Source of the DNA: Candidatus Eiseniibacteriota bacterium
Lineage (GTDB): Bacteria > Eisenbacteria > RBG-16-71-46 > JABDJR01 > JAWXBZ01
DNA length: 37,498 bases
Assembly (NCBI GenBank): GCA_034440375.1
Contig: JAWXBZ010000196.1
Location: forward strand, 1 to 37,498
Reading direction: 5' to 3'
This document shows positions 24,001 through 33,000 of the stretch, in pieces (position 1 is the first letter of the stretch; the number at the start of each line of letters is the position of its first letter). The position numbers were made by a program.

Positions 24001-27000
24001 TTGCGCGTGGCCGTGTCCGGAGACATGCTCGGCGAACTTCGGGCGCAGCTTGGTTCCGAGCATGTGCGCCTGGGCGAAGCCCGGCCCCGTCCGCGCCCGG
24101 CCGCCGAACCGGCCAACCCCTGGCGCGGGGGGACGCGCCGGGCCGGAAAGCCGCGGGAAATGGTGGTGTCACGTGGCTATCGACCGGCACCAGCAAAGGG
24201 AGGCCGGGCATGAGCACACCCGGTTGGCTGGAATTCGAGAAACCGATTGTCGAACTCGAAGCCAGGATCGAGGAATTGCGACAACTGAACAGCAATGGCC
24301 GTGTCGAGGTGGCCGAGGAAATCGAGAGCCTGGAGCGGAAGGCGGAACGCCTCCAGCAGGAAATCTATTCCAACCTGAACCGCTGGCAACGGGTGCAGTT
24401 GGCCCGCCATCCTCGCCGCCCCTATGCGCTCGACTACATCGACGGGCTCTCCTCGGAGTTCACCGAACTCCATGGCGATCGGCTCTTCGGTGACGACCGG
24501 GCCATCGTCGGCGGATTTGGCTTTCTGGATGACCGCCCGACCATGTTCATCGGTCACCAGAAGGGGCGCAACACCAAGGACAACATCCTTCGCAATTTCG
24601 GCATGCCTCATCCCGAGGGGTATCGGAAGGCCCTGCGCCTGATGGACCTGGCCGGGCGCTTCGGCGCGCCGATCGTGACCCTGGTCGACACGCCCGGGGC
24701 CTATCCCGGTGTCGGGGCGGAGGAGCGCGGCCAGTCCGAGGCGATCGCCCGAAACCTGCGCGACATGGCCCGCATTCCGGTCCCGATCGTCACGGTCGTG
24801 ATCGGTGAGGGGGGGTCGGGGGGGGCGCTGGCCATTGCCGTGGCCGATGTCATCCTCATGATGGAGAACTCGATCTACTCGGTCATCTCGCCGGAGGGGT
24901 GTGCGGCCATCCTGTGGGGCGATCGCACCCGGGCGCCGGAGGCGGCCGAGGCGCTCAAGCTGACCGCCACCGACCTGGGTGCGCTTGGAATCATCGACGA
25001 CATCGTGCCCGAACCGATCGGTGGCGCGCACCGCGATCCGCCCGTCGCCGTGGCCACTCTCAAGACCCATGTGGCGGCCCGGCTTGAATCGCTTCGGGCC
25101 ACGCCGGTCGATCGGCTGCTCAAGGATCGCCTGGCCAAGTACCGGAGGATGGGGTCATTCCAGACAAAGGGTTTGACACGCCCGGGTGACACTGGTTAGC
25201 CTCATCACCGTCGGGGCTCCATTGTGTCGCCCCGCGCCGACCTGGAAAGACCTGCCCCACAGGAGCCTTCACCTATCGCATCTGGCTAAGGGTCACTGCC
25301 TGAACGGAAAGACCGGCGCCATTCCCGGAAGCTCAGGTGTGCCAACCGCGACCCATGACCAGCGCGACCACACTCTCTACGTCCGGAGGGGTGGCCTCGG
25401 CGTCCCGACTGTCACCATCAGCAAGGAGACGATGACCCATGCCAAGCAAGGAATTGCTGGAGCTCCTGGCCTGCACGGCCTGCAAGGGGCCCCTCGATTA
25501 CCGTGAGTCGGAGCAGAAACTGATCTGCAGGAAGTGTGGCCTGTCCTACCGGATCGAGGACGATATTCCCAACATGCTTCTCGACGAGGCGGAAAAGACC
25601 ACAGGTTGATGATGCACCGGAACGACGGTCCGCGCCCCCCGGTGGCCATTGGTGCGGGGATGTTTCACGCTTTGTGGCGCCGTGGCCTGGCCGCGACGTT
25701 CGGGACGCCGCTTCTCCTGATCGTCGGGTTGCACCTCGCAATCGCTGATGCGGTCGCCCGTCCCGACGACATGATTCGGGAAACCCCCGCCTCCGCCACC
25801 GGCGTGTCGTTCCGCTATATACCACCGACTCCCCGAATCCTCGACTTCGAGGGGGGCAAACCGAATCAGCGCACGATCGTCGTGGCCGATGCGGGCCTGA
25901 CCGGTGCCCTGCCGGACGACTGGATTTTGCCGGTTCACACGGCGCAGATTCTCGTCCCAGCGGGCCATGACTGGTCGCTCGATTTCCGAACGGTGTCCGG
26001 TTCGCGTATCGAGGATGTCTCCTTTGCGCGCGTGCCGACCGGTGGTCGTGCCGCGGAACGCGGTGCCGACAGCCCGCGATCGATTACCCTGGACGGCGTT
26101 TTTCCGGAATCACCGGTCACGGGATCGCTCGAGATCTACCGGGGTCGGACGCTCCTCCTCCTGACGCTGGCGCCGGTGCAGTTCGATCCCATCGACGGTA
26201 CGGCTACCACCTTCGAGTCGATCGAGGTCGATGTCCGATTCCATCGGCGCGCCGACGCCCCTGGCCGCGCCGTCCGGCCCTTCCCCACGGAATCGGCCGG
26301 GGATGATTTCTGGAAGGACCTGATACTGAACCCGGAGGCCCTGTCGGCCGACACCGGGGGCCCTCCATTGCGCTCCGAGCTGGTGGCTGCGGGAGCAGCC
26401 GGCTCGGGACGTCCGGATACCTATTTCGATGACGCGCCGATCTGGCTCAAGGTGGGGGTTAACGCGAACGGCATTTACCGCATCAACGCCGCGACCGTGA
26501 CGGCGGCTGGTGTGGACGCCCGCACCATCGATCCGGCCACGATCCGGATATTCGCCAATCCGGGGCCGGAACTGGATGAAGCCACGCACGAAGCCGATGT
26601 GCCGGCCTGGGGTGAGCGGGGTGGATTCCGCGAGCTGGCCATTCATGTCAGGGAGGGCGGTGCGTCGAACAGAACCTTCGAGGATGTGGACACGCTCCTC
26701 TTCTACGGACTGGCCATTGACAATTTCGGCAACACCTTCGATCCGGCCGGGAGCGCGGAATGGCTTGAGAATGAACACACCGGGACGAACGTCTACTGGA
26801 TGACCTGGGGAGGCAGTTTCCCGGCCGCGCCGCTGCGCATGGCCACCCTTCCGGGCGGCGCGCAAGGCGAGCCGGTCAACACCGTCCTCGAGCGAAGCCA
26901 CGTCGAGATCAACGACCCCGCCCTGTACGACCCGTTACCTCGTGAGCGGGGCGTCCGATGGGAAAAATGGTGGTGGCAGCGGATCGAGGACTCGGGCGCC

Positions 27001-30000: not shown

Positions 30001-33000
30001 GTGGCGCCGGTACCACACCCGCCTGCCCCACCCCGGCCGATCATCCAACGGGAGGTTTTTCCATGCCGTTTGCTCGTTTCCGACTCATGTACGCCCTTCC
30101 GGCCCTGTTGTCCCTGCTCCTGGTGGCCGGGTCGGCCCGGGCCCAGGGGACCGCTGGCGCCTACAGCCTGCAGATTCCGCCGGGCGCCCGGGCGGAGGGG
30201 ATGGGCCGAAGCTTCACCGCCATCGCCGACGATGCTTTTGCCCCCTGGTGGAATCCGGGCGGGCTGGCCTTCCTGGACGGCAAACATGCCGCGTTGATGC
30301 ACACCAAGCTTGTTCCGGATCTGGCGGACGACGTCTACTTTGAGTACCTCTCCTACGCCCAGCATCTTTCCGGTTGGGGCGGCATCGCGGCGACGATCAC
30401 CTACCTGTCGTACGGCGAGAGCCAGGCCACCGATCCGGGACAGGGAGATCTCGGCACCTTCAGTTCGTGGGAGATTGCCCCGTCGATCGCCATCGGCACA
30501 AGCATCACTGACAACCTCGGCCTCGGCGCGAATCTCAAGTATGTCCACCTCGACCTGGCGCCGGCCCTCTCTTCGACATCCGGCGAGGCCGGCAAGGGGA
30601 GCACCTTCGCGGTCGACCTGGGCGCTCTCTACCGGATTCCCGGCGCGCCGATCAACCTGGCGGTGGTGATTCAGAATCTGGGTCCGGACATTGCCCTCGT
30701 GGACGAGGAGCAGGCGGATCCACTCCCCCGGACGCTTCGCATCGGCGGAGCATGGCAGGCCCTCAGCAAGGAGGCCCACAGCCTCATCGTGGCTTTCGAT
30801 GCCGACAAGCTCCTGCTGGGTGACCAGGGGGGCGCGCCGCCCGACTCGACATTTCAGCCGACCTGGTTCGACGAGAACGAGGTCCTGTTGAACGGCGGCA
30901 TCGAATACTCCTACAACAAGCTCGTCTCCCTTCGAGTGGGCTACATCTTTGACGACCCGGGTGAGATCAAGGACTTCACGTATGGCCTCGGCGTGGCCTA
31001 TCGCGCGCTCTCGTTCGACTACGCCAGCATTCCGCAGTTCGAAGAACTGGACCGGGTCAGCAAGTTCTCGCTCTCGGTACGATTCTGAGTTGATTCGCAA
31101 GGTCATTCTGCTGCCGGCGGGTTTCTCGCGAGCCCGGCTGACGCTGGTATTAGTCGCCGGACTGGCGCTGGTCGGGGGAGACAGGGCGGCGGCCAGGGAG
31201 CCTGTCTTCCGTCTGTCGCACACCCCGTTAACCCCTTCCTCCGTTTCCCGACAGGAACGATGGAAGGGGTTTCCCTGTTTCATGGGAGCCGACGGCCACG
31301 CCATCACGTTGAAGCCGGGCGGCCCCGACGCCGGACGGATTCGTGCCGAATCCTTGAAAGACGCGCCCCTCCTGTTTGATGGATCAGGCGGCCCCGCCGA
31401 CGAGACGCGGCCGGCCGACCATGCGTCCCCGGCCATCGCCGCGCCGGGTCGCTTTGCCGCCACCGATATTGATACGCTTCGGGTGGCCATGATCCGAATT
31501 GATTTCGAAACGGACCGGAGCGGCGATTCGACAACCACGCCCGACGGTCGATTCGACCTGCGGACCGACCAGCTGCTCCCGGTCGATCCGCCGCCGCACA
31601 ACCGTAATTTTTACTCGGCTCATGGCCGCGCGCTGGCAAACTATTACCGGGCCCAATCCGCCGGCCATCTGGAGCTTGCCGTCGAGGTTTTTCCAACCGA
31701 TCCGGGCGCAGCCTACCGGCTGGGCGACACGGCCGATTACGGCCCCTGGTCGGTGGCGGCTGACAACGTGAATGTGGCCCTGGAGGCAGAAACGCTGATC
31801 AAGGATGCCCTCGGCGCCGCGTTCGCCTCCGGAGAGATCGACTTGCGTTCGTTCGATGCCTTCATCGTTGTTCATGCCGGCGCCGACTTTCAGAGTGACA
31901 TCAACTCGGATTCGCCGAATGACATTCCGACCTTTGTCCTGGAGTTCGGCGACACGGTTTTCGTCGGCGGCAAGCATATCGAACGCTGCATGGTCCTGCC
32001 TGAGACGACGACCCAGGATGGATTTTCCGGCGCACTGAACGGCGTACTGGCCCATGAGTTCGGCCACATCCTCGGCCTGCCCGACCTGTACAACGCCCGG
32101 ACTGGGCTGCCGATGGTCGGATTCTTCTCGGTGATGGACTCCGGGCACAATATCGGCGCCATCCTCGTCGACACCGATTCGACCGAGGTTGAAGTGATTG
32201 GTGTCCTGCCGTCGTCCTTCGATGCCTGGAGCCGGCTCCAGCTCTTTCTGTCGCCGGAATCGCCAGGTGGTGGATTCCTGGGATCGCGCATTGCCGTGGC
32301 CGAGGAATCGCTCGCTGTCGACCTCGGCGCGGTGCTGCTGGAACAGGAACTCATCTACTCCCCGATTCATGACAGCGAGTATTACCTGGTCGAGAATCGG
32401 GCGATCGAGCTGGACGGAAACGGCTTCCCGATCATTCGGGCCGATGCCATGACCGGCGTCATCCTGGGGCCCATCGCCGACTCGACGTTGTCGAATCCGG
32501 CCGGGGCCTTCGAATACGATGCGCTCCTGCCGTCCGGCGGCCTTCTGATCTGGCACATCGATGACCGCGTTATCTTCGGCGACCTGAGCGATCCGTTCGG
32601 CGTCAACACGAATATCGCCCGCCGCGGCGTCAAACTGGTGGAAGCGGATGGTATCGAAGACCAGGGTCGCCGTAACTTCGGCACGCCATGGGATCCGTTC
32701 TACGCAGGAAACAATTCGTTCCTTGGCCCGTTCACCCTGCCGGCCAGCACGACCAATGACGGCCAGTTCTCGCGAGTCGAGATCGGCACGATCTCGGAGC
32801 CCGGGGTCACGATGGAAGTGATCGTGCGGCGCCGGGCGGCGTTGGATGGCTGGCCAATCTTCCTGAACGACGCGATCACAATCACCTCGACCGGTCTGCT
32901 TGATGTGACCGGGGACGGCTCGCCGGAAATGCTCTTCACGTTCGGCTCGAATATCCTCGCGATCGAGGGACGGGGGGGGCGGCCATACCCGCCGCTCGAT

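Follow-up and report, generated by a model that had tools for sequence, protein, structure and literature searches.

The window analyzed here is the whole 37,498-nt contig JAWXBZ010000196.1 (C196) of the Candidatus Eiseniibacteriota genome GCA_034440375.1 (G000; 264 contigs, 93.7% complete), and it carries the sortase gene of a type IX secretion system (T9SS) directly followed by a gene for a PorV-family carrier. The features described in the window are all on the + strand. The porU gene (25609..29886; 1,425 aa by the gene caller, in a frame open from 25534) encodes a C25 sortase that itself ends in a CTD. In a profile search of the window, NF033707 matched residues 304–1439 of the ORF from 25534 (26443–29850) at 519.8 bits against a cut-off of 420, which reproduces the coordinates given in the initial annotation; the porU-porV adjacency given there is confirmed as well. 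PorU contains the Pfam C25 domain (PF01364, 246.6 bits) and a C-terminal FlgD_ig domain, together with a GHG motif at His938 and an ASC motif at Cys972, which we take to be the C25 catalytic pair. The porV-family gene (30087..31088; frame open from 29985) gave 227 bits with NF033709 (cut-off 90), the best score of the ten PorV-family genes in G000, and 138.7 bits with the PorV equivalog NF033710, which is below its cut-off of 250; its product is predicted to be the general carrier, a likely assignment. The porU-porV adjacency is kept in G002, G014, G204, G207, G220 and G223.

Downstream of porV lies a cargo gene for an M6-like metalloprotease that combines FG-GAP repeats with a CTD (31282..34470; PF05547, CTD E 8e-15; NF052323 214.7 bits, below the cut-off of 600), a relative of which is also found downstream of porV in G002, G204, G207 and G223. 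It is followed by genes for a DUF5683-like protein (34736..35290, frame open from 34289; PF18935 22.3 bits, below the cut-off of 26.7) and a DUF5683 protein (35503..36162, frame open from 35302; PF18935 29.3 bits, over cut-off), both of which are retained in other lineages beside porU-porV or sprA, and by a gene for an NHL-repeat protein that is probably a lipoprotein (36192..37127; PF01436 66 bits), found at the same position in G002, G014 and G204. The contig ends within a gene for a SprA-related outer-membrane barrel of ~1,140 aa (N-terminal part, 37124..37498), the remainder of which is at C100:3–3047, followed by an Omp85/POTRA gene; positions 37208–37492 match profile positions 31–119, and the C100 part matches positions 114–1116. 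The structure model of the G014 ortholog (pLDDT 90) has many long strands, and its top Foldseek matches are SprA, with a TM-score of only 0.24. A further cargo gene in the window, for an S8 subtilase with a CTD (14847..17753; PF00082 130 bits, FlgD_ig weak, CTD E 3e-20), does not adjoin a PorV gene.

The remaining translocon genes lie on other contigs. SprA is encoded at C34:43869–50756 (TIGR04189, 548.3 bits vs. a cut-off of 200) and has a match in all 31 genomes searched from the phylum, over cut-off in 30; PorX scored 654.6 bits. These parts are present as the initial annotation had listed them, but the list overlooked SprE/PorW, an ortholog of which is found at C235:13890–16196. The curated SprE model gives this protein 41.8 bits, below cut-off, whereas a wider profile gives E 3.5e-26 vs. 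7.7e-11 for the runner-up in G000, and a profile of the N-terminal part alone gives E 7e-13 vs. 0.14 for the next match. Across many lineages, the sprE locus shows pyrK-pyrD synteny in 15 of 20 cases, and SprE sequences cluster by lineage in a quick, unrooted tree that includes one mis-extracted row. A Skp-like gene behind bamA (C140:6154–6705), recognized by eye, is a candidate SkpA. Using models of confirmed family identity, we found no PorD, Plug or PorG in G000 or G002, and among five genomes only the GldM-positive control has PorG.

A CTD profile built from 9 seeds in 3 rounds identified 136 genes ending in a CTD among the 2,729 genes of G000 of at least 150 aa, with no match to reversed sequences or to N-termini, so that the earlier count of more than 100 cargoes is borne out by an independent profile. 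Scores with the curated TIGR04183 model, at 21.6–21.9 bits, narrowly miss 23. The ten PorV-family genes (six over cut-off and four long, weaker matches) are mostly placed behind cargo genes, as previously described: a CTD gene is directly upstream of nine of the ten, porU included, against a background of 80/2,301 (3.5%), and eight of the nine paralogs that remain when the porU partner is excluded follow a CTD gene directly (binomial p 2e-11). The paired CTDs are atypical: 2 of 10 have the D-x-x-G-R motif, vs. 112 of 126 other CTDs. Two of the PorV paralogs bear periplasmic tails (OmpA, TPR), two follow a TonB-dependent receptor, and one has a weak PF11751 match (17.5 bits, below 22.3). In a complex prediction that covered the cognate CTD only, one cargo CTD and its adjacent paralog scored 0.91 vs. 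0.00 for the best of three controls; of 157 solved and 215 mismatched pairs, 116 and 2, respectively, reach the mark applied to this score. Runs share at least 83% of contacts and the partner pLDDT is at least 74, though the pass may stem from likeness because PorV-CTD complexes have already been solved.

These genes do not have the appearance of a relic. That the module is vestigial, or that its CTD proteins stay periplasmic, would fit with the lack of a motor (below) and with a system known here from genes alone, but 30 of 31 relatives have an intact SprA, the PorU catalytic motifs are retained alongside 136 cargoes, and across 70 loci 59 of the 68 PorV genes are preceded by a CTD gene, a pairing conserved mostly among orthologs of one module. 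A CTD xylanase is, moreover, cell-attached in Rhodothermus marinus, according to work cited in the relevant part of PMC6539836. We therefore regard an inactive module as very unlikely.

The evidence on the motor is entirely negative. In agreement with the initial annotation, GldK, GldL, GldM, GldN and PorP are undetected in G000, and none is over cut-off in the relatives searched. GldM gave no match in G000 at E≤10, and GldM_1st was over cut-off in 0 of 201 genomes of the phylum. An N-terminal profile that includes divergent GldL found no real GldL match in 29 relatives, and the GldL signature, which recovers 23 of 30 controls, is found in none of the genes of G000. GldK (TIGR03525) and PorP (TIGR03519) were each without a match over cut-off in 29 relatives and each had one among 80 genomes, the Flavobacteriaceae control; several relatives yielded no GldK candidate at all, and the FGE-sulfatase domain (PF03781) has no match anywhere in G000. 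GldN (PF19841) was found in 0 of 21 relatives and over cut-off in 1 of 70 genomes, again the Flavobacteriaceae control, and it is the weakest of the four motor negatives because no divergent GldN positive control exists. Broadened profiles applied to G000 gave a best E of 0.016, on coiled-coil stretches. An assembly gap is an extremely improbable cause even though G000 is 93.7% complete and in 264 contigs, since it is largely refuted by the same result in relatives of 98–100% completeness and in 121 genomes with a completeness of at least 90%.

A motor too divergent for all of the sequence profiles was the second possibility raised in the initial annotation, and it is weakened by a sensitivity control from Rhodothermia, some of which contain divergent gldK-L-M operons (barrel-fused GldK, GldL and a short GldM). 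Searched with canonical-only profiles, these operons gave E 1e-6 to 6e-12 for GldL and 1e-5 to 2e-17 for GldM, compared with bests of 0.14 and 0.8 in G000. The Rhodothermia proteins are themselves below all curated cut-offs (GldL_N 21–24 bits, GldM 57 bits, GldK 205–230 bits), as is SprE of G000, and hhalign (probability 0.8) does not link the fourth gene of the operon, a putative GldN, to that family, which means that divergence can put GldN-type proteins beyond reach. The FGE domain of GldK, however, outlasts this divergence (147–153 bits), and the ring partners PorG and PorP are missing as well. A Rhodothermia GldM profile run against 1.84 billion proteins returned 162 matches, ~12 of the short type and then proteins as long as canonical GldM; a third large group did not appear. 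Because canonical profiles catch the divergent Rhodothermia motors while G000 yields only noise and lacks any FGE-sulfatase domain, a missed motor appears less likely, and we would assign unrecognized GldKLMN homologs only a small probability.

The Gld-less T9SS is not special to the Eisenbacteria lineage but occurs commonly throughout the FCB group, and the proposed peculiarity of one phylum outside Bacteroidota does not hold. In a panel of 50 mostly FCB genomes, which was picked via a PorV paralog and is thus enriched for T9SS genomes, SprA is present in 48 and GldM is over cut-off in 1, consistent with the earlier suggestion that the state may be general in FCB candidate phyla. The same state is observed in records titled Ignavibacteria, Rhodothermales, Balneolales, Chlorobiales, Kryptoniota, KSB1, Calditrichaeota, Krumholzibacteriota and Zixiibacteriota; most genomes compared are MAGs, and the Gld-negative ones include two single-chromosome genomes. 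GldL was found in 10 of 201 Rhodothermia genomes. The Gld-less form is probably ancestral. Repeated loss from a gliding ancestor could give the same pattern: Gld operons fall into two classes, Bacteroidia-type and divergent Rhodothermia-type; G231 is Gld-positive while none was found in its close relatives G236 and G233, so that loss or transfer does happen; and gliding was inferred to have come first in the Discussion of PMC12635249. For such a history, each of the deeper lineages sampled must have lost the genes independently, none with a trace, and non-gliding Bacteroidia are described in the same source, in the portion concerned, as retaining the ring for powering export. We consider repeated loss unlikely, if marginally less so than an unrecognized motor.

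We propose, as a probable though far from certain reading, that G000 has a working T9SS without the Gld energy chain. Cargo would reach the periplasm by Sec and enter the barrel of SprA, which the lipoprotein SprE would hold; there the cargo CTD would bind a PorV-family carrier docked in SprA. The ~126 cargoes with a canonical CTD are predicted to use the general PorV encoded beside porU, after which PorU would cut the CTD and then anchor or release the cargo. The minority with an atypical CTD, each encoded directly upstream of its own PorV paralog, would stay bound on the surface, the dedicated paralogs filling the role of Bacteroidia PorP/SprF. The Gld chain may have been added later onto the ancestral system by Bacteroidia and a few Rhodothermia.

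Passages of PMC10994853 report that motor loss in Flavobacterium johnsoniae traps cargo on the translocon, and for this reason some drive is expected in G000. That the system is energized differently, the first possibility in the initial annotation, we infer with no substitute motor found: no candidate motor genes are beside sprA, porU or sprE. The only recognizable periplasm-spanning proton motors found in G000 are those of ExbB (three), ExbD (four) and TonB (three), and our tentative best guess for the ejection of the loaded carrier, given the rest of the model, is a generic ExbB/ExbD-TonB-type motor pulling via SprE. Against this guess, the seven TonB-dependent receptor plugs of G000 are ordinary clients of such motors, most of its ExbB loci are not orthologs of the G014 ones, and of 17 sprA loci from other phyla only one has exbB-exbD-tonB downstream of sprA.

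On the same footing, an unpowered hand-off is slightly less favored, and a motor of another kind a little less again. In a sub-case of the preferred explanation, to which we give a modest share overall, no motor would be required to release the carrier: it would be enough that the cargo folds or is passed to PorU, or that an empty carrier is exchanged for the loaded one. Cargo loading is energy-independent in vitro in the experiments described in part of PMC10994853, none of the T9SS genes is linked to a candidate motor, and the additional lack of Plug and PorD in G000 and G002 makes for a different translocon cycle; SprE is nevertheless kept throughout, and by the same account F. johnsoniae requires it for release even when the motor is intact. 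A drive borrowed from a neighboring ATP-powered machine, LptB2FG or the type IV pilus system, is improbable within the model and very improbable as an explanation overall. In G000, sprA and the sole lptFG pair are arranged head to head. Among relatives, lptFG is found 20 kb or less from sprA in 16 of the 17 loci where sprA was called, as it is in 10 of 17 loci of other lineages, and 16 of 20 relatives have a PilT gene near sprA. The pilus clusters, however, have their own secretin in five of five genomes, no PilT-sprA link was seen outside the phylum, and the block of housekeeping genes that holds sprA is conserved, so that its proximity to lptFG may reflect ancient gene order.

GldKLMN are treated as core T9SS parts and are included in detection models, one reason why T9SS was reported, in the portion of PMC4793230 concerned, from 60 of 97 Bacteroidetes and from no other group. 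Our results suggest that the export machine is older than the Gld motor and runs some other way, and they run against the 2025 proposal, made in the Discussion of PMC12635249, which places the first evolution of T9SS inside the gliding machine. If the translocon works FCB-wide without the Gld chain, the evolutionary order is reversed and another way of emptying SprA exists. We put at about even the broader idea that SprA-SprE, the sortase and the PorV carriers form an FCB-wide pre-gliding exporter with Gld-unrelated ejection, to which Bacteroidia later coupled the gliding motor, PorP/SprF replacing the PorV paralogs; the second SprA-like barrel and its Omp85 partner may belong to it. Cultured Rhodothermia and Ignavibacteria should show the same Gld-less state, which makes an FCB-wide translocon without the Gld chain testable, and the many CTD enzymes noted, in the sources consulted in part, in Melioribacter, Kryptonia and Chitinispirillum would gain an export route. 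The cargo-PorV pairs also offer simple material for studies of CTD specificity.

In the T9SS of F. johnsoniae and Porphyromonas gingivalis, a SprA-SprE-SkpA-PorD extended translocon, a PorV carrier and the PorU sortase operate with a GldLM-GldKN-PorG energy chain. G000 differs in lacking detectable GldK, L, M, N, PorG, PorP, PorD and Plug, in its ten PorV-family genes, and in CTDs that fit FlgD_ig at least as well as TIGR04183; it shares SprA, SprE/PorW, the PorV family, PorU, PorX, many CTD cargoes and adjacent porU-porV. The Rhodothermia Gld operon, absent from G000, stands in the same SprA/SprE background as in Gld-negative relatives. As for the known ExbB-ExbD-TonB and TolQ-TolR-TolA proton motors, the ExbB, ExbD and TonB of G000 have ordinary receptor clients, and their contact with SprA, SprE or PorV is hypothetical. 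Compared with the type B CTD cargo and its PorP/SprF shuttle, as described in part of PMC12618676, the G000 carriers are of the PorV/PorQ family (TIGR03519 found none in 29 relatives), its plain PorV paralogs have no C-terminal twin-cysteine tail, and its CTDs belong to type A/FlgD-like variants, a single CHU_C match being weak and below cut-off. The likeness to that shuttle is in organization: the carrier gene is directly behind the cargo gene, and orphan cargoes use a common carrier, as we predict for the PorV encoded beside porU.

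The type IX secretion (T9SS) inventory that the initial annotation gave for this Candidatus Eiseniibacteriota genome (G000) is correct: porU, the PorV family, SprA, PorX and the genes with a C-terminal cargo domain (CTD) were all re-found by profile searches. The window is contig C196 of G000, and its porU gene (window 25609-29886) scores 519.8 bits against NF033707 (cut-off 420), and the adjoining PorV-family gene (window 30087-31088) scores 227 bits against NF033709 and 138.7 against the strict PorV model, which needs 250. On the 3' side of the latter lie, in order, an M6-like CTD cargo gene, two DUF5683-like genes, an NHL protein gene and the 5' part of a gene for a large outer-membrane protein. 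SprA (C34:43869-50756; 548.3 bits) is matched in all 31 genomes of the phylum, 30 of them above cut-off, and PorX scores 654.6 bits. Six PorV-family genes above cut-off are accompanied by four long weaker matches, and 136 of the 2,729 genes carry a CTD according to a profile grown from nine seeds, which gave no match to reversed or N-terminal control sequences. A metagenome scan with PorV returned 22 loci, mostly close. The minus strand of the window also encodes a subtilase of more than 1,700 residues (2-5209), which runs past the contig end and whose CTD, if any, is out of view. A peptidase-MA/PD40/Omp85 protein is encoded at C125:24424-27573 and at loci L195, L267 and L268; in Ignavibacteria-type genomes it is found together with DUF5683 genes in the region of porU-porV or of sprA.

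While the parts named in the initial annotation stood, its list omitted SprE/PorW, which is present in G000. The protein, a 768-residue lipoprotein (C235:13890-16196), is the best match of the SprE profile (12 seed rows, one of them a wrong gene) and leads the next match by 15 orders of magnitude. SprE/PorW is above cut-off in 11 of 80 genomes, with graded N-terminal matches in many others, and sprE shows synteny with pyrK-pyrD at 15 of 20 loci. A quick tree (unrooted, with one mis-extracted row) groups SprE by lineage, a pattern that fits vertical descent and proves no order of events.

Searches for the ring and motor, the Gld chain of GldK, GldL, GldM and GldN, were negative. GldM is absent from G000 by the curated model, and GldM_1st is above cut-off in none of 201 genomes of its phylum; GldN (one of 70 genomes) and GldK (one of 80) are above cut-off only in the Flavobacteriaceae positive control, G246; and no FGE-sulfatase domain was found in G000. 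PorG, PorD and Plug were found in neither G000 nor its relative G002; of the Gld-negative single-chromosome genomes G220 and G223, both have PorD and the former has Plug. Motor-like gene pairs are absent from the sprA neighbourhoods of 20 relatives and 17 other genomes, from porU neighbourhoods and from 20 sprE loci. A hydrophobicity screen returned no GldL/GldM-like gene pair, nor any match to four short motifs; it is given no weight, because a real GldM helix escapes it.

Sensitivity was tested by tracing weak GldM matches in a 251-genome sample of G220's phylum, where 62 matches are above cut-off and 3 are weak; the positives, about every fourth or fifth genome, we infer to be one class. 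The weak matches are real divergent Gld operons, found in some Rhodothermia (L209-L211, L231, L240-L246, L262-L265, L275) and composed of a barrel-fused GldK-like gene, GldL, a short GldM and a fourth gene. In the first product, of 600-700 residues, an N-terminal barrel with one weak PorG match (E 7.5e-6) is joined to the GldK-like domain, and it looks like a natural PorG-GldK fusion. The FGE domain of this GldK scores 147-153 bits (a local GldK profile built with Rhodothermia proteins is circular on them and was set aside), the invariant G, K, G, E and F residues are retained in the membrane helices of the divergent GldL, and the short GldM lacks the first helical domain. With canonical-only profiles and scaling to one genome, the divergent proteins are recovered at E values of 1e-6 to 6e-12 (GldL) and 1e-5 to 2e-17 (GldM); the best G000 E values are 0.14 and 0.8, respectively. 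Profiles including the divergent proteins gave only coiled-coil noise in G000 (best E 0.016), and the wider GldL profile found a real GldL in none of 29 relatives. Divergent GldM searched against 1.84 billion proteins returned 162 unnamed hits, whose lengths and scores point to no large third group. The absence case is weakest for GldN: no link could be made between it and gene four of the divergent operon.

Several candidates were rejected. From their context, FGE matches in four relatives were taken to be ergothioneine-type genes or kinase fusions (11 loci, one without a called gene; one further match falls outside the set). One of them, a 409-residue lipoprotein of G002, is not flanked by gld-like genes and gets no GldK score at E<=1e-18. 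A pair weakly matching the GldL/GldM profiles is a coiled-coil pair in a small VgrG-like locus (C23:1-6094; two coiled-coil genes, identified by eye). Weak GldL matches proved to be a multi-helix membrane protein (G204) and an MscL-like gene (G029), and one in G006 contains a stop; a weak GldM match in G224 is an isolated 237-residue lipoprotein with a GldM C-terminal domain.

A PorV paralog scan gave 71 loci with record titles spanning the FCB group. The T9SS without a recognizable motor reported in the initial annotation holds as an observation and extends further than was allowed there: among 50 genomes from the scan, a panel chosen via a T9SS gene and labelled by record titles that can err, SprA is above cut-off in 48 and GldM in one (47 and one of 49 without the unpublished G206, on which no claim depends). 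The two SprA-less genomes are titled Elusimicrobia and WOR-3. The wider GldL profile was positive, among 49 genomes, only in G246 and in one further genome, G231, and GldL is clear in 10 of 201 genomes of G220's class, Rhodothermia. Outside Bacteroidia, Gld-negative genomes are the norm, G220 and G223 among them.

The porU-porV run also holds, within window 37124-37498 and C100:3-4845 (L271; orthologs L059, L060, L270), an unnamed outer-membrane barrel of 1,140 residues with a SprA-like N-terminal part and, after it, an Omp85/POTRA gene. It occurs in 74 of 80 genomes, in 17 of 20 that are GldM-positive and in neither SprA-less one. Its model (pLDDT 90; 31 from single sequence) has SprA as top fold matches (TM 0.24), and in the ESM Atlas, apart from clusters without names, the sole result was a lead (0.87) to the SprA family. 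It is possibly an unrecognized T9SS part or second translocon.

Directly upstream of nine of the ten PorV-family genes of G000 lies a CTD gene (background 80 of 2,301 genes); without the porU pair, this holds for eight of nine paralogs (p 2e-11), and the sole unpaired gene has a PilZ gene upstream. The CTDs adjoining PorV genes are atypical, with the D-x-x-G-R motif in 2 of 10 versus 112 of the remaining 126. Two paralogs are placed after a TonB-dependent receptor and cargo; TSP3 and OmpA domains are present in one paralog and TPRs in another. At 70 loci of other genomes, a CTD gene precedes 59 of the 68 PorV genes having a same-strand upstream gene, pairings that are not independent because they are mostly orthologs of one module. 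A module of receptor, CTD protein and PorV paralog is kept across the FCB group; at L083 (C30:24170-31154 in G000) and L104-L171 it comprises a TonB-dependent receptor, a CTD protein of 1,090 residues that no Pfam family matches, and the paralog. The CTD protein may be a surface lid substituting for SusD. A predicted complex of one cargo CTD with its PorV paralog scored 0.91, versus 0.00 for the best of three controls (the mark is reached by 116 of 157 solved pairs and by 2 of 215 mismatched ones), with contact agreement of at least 83% and partner pLDDT of at least 74; it shows likeness only, because similar complexes are already solved. Elsewhere, a weak PorV-family gene has a helix-hairpin-helix protein gene downstream (C188:3053-5175; L273:9279-12026; L274), a pair that adjoins porD in G223 and G220.

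In F. johnsoniae, cargo loading on PorV inside SprA is energy-free, and ejection of the loaded carrier requires the motor and SprE (available passages of PMC10994853); PorG on a GldK track is proposed to push the carrier (excerpts of PMC12635249). By gene content, the loading half is there in G000, and track, motor and pusher are lacking. The general PorV carrier and PorU would handle most cargo, with the remainder on dedicated PorV-family carriers. Ejection may, tentatively, be driven by a TonB/Tol-type motor. The only periplasm-spanning proton motors found in G000 comprise three ExbB, four ExbD and three TonB proteins; a dedicated role is disfavoured by seven receptor clients there (plug matches), by the little orthology that the ExbB loci share with those of the relative G014, and by linkage of such a motor to sprA in only 1 of 17 loci. 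The G014 genome also has an exbB-exbD-exbD cluster (L058:5954-12003) that includes two TPR proteins and resembles the myxobacterial Agl-Glt core. Unpowered release is almost as likely as a TonB/Tol-type drive, and an unknown motor somewhat less so. An Lpt or pilus drive is improbable: in many lineages sprA and lptFG are arranged head to head, but this may be old gene order, and in five of five genomes the type IV pilus clusters include a secretin of their own, which led to the rejection of a pilus system lacking a gate. The lptF-lptG pair beside sprA (C34:43869-53463; L021-L040, L185-L197; many FCB lineages) is the sole one, and an M28 peptidase gene, which probably encodes a glutaminyl cyclase, follows sprA. 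Of five PilT-family genes above cut-off in G000, one ATPase gene lies between accB and accC (L095, C40:2080-3195), and in 16 of 20 relatives such a PilT gene is close to sprA. Compact pilC-pilB-pilT-pilMNO-secretin-like clusters with a divergent secretin (L321, L322, L323) occur in Gld-negative Ignavibacteria, Rhodothermales and KSB1-type genomes.

T9SS presence beyond Bacteroidia is already anticipated in the literature. McBride and Zhu (2013) and Veith (2017) reportedly discussed partial gene sets there. In the passages available, T9SS may occur in several FCB phyla (PMC11285876), BLAST hints concern Chlorobi, Fibrobacteres and Ignavibacteriae (PMC5837995), CTD proteins are on record for Fibrobacter, Melioribacter, Kryptonia, Chitinispirillum and Roseithermus, and PMC4793230 and PMC10202324 restrict T9SS to Bacteroidota. 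Nothing on a motor-less form was found, with the terms used, in PMC8542988, PMC10515386 and PMC13104615, nor any description of T9SS without GldKLMN or of cargo-paired PorV paralogs in searchable full text, a scope outside which subscription papers and supplements fall. Systematic absence of the energy chain with SprE retained appears undescribed within that literature. The case is built on negative evidence and offers no replacement motor; a Gld-less T9SS challenges a current evolutionary model, and the question of what empties SprA becomes testable. Judged by its genes, the G000 system is not a canonical T9SS by motor and ring, but at the outer membrane it very probably operates as a canonical one does. 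PorP is above cut-off in one of 80 genomes, the Flavobacteriaceae control, and the carrier family of G000 differs from that of F. johnsoniae, whose type B cargo-PorP/SprF pairs (excerpts of PMC12618676) its cargo-carrier layout mirrors.
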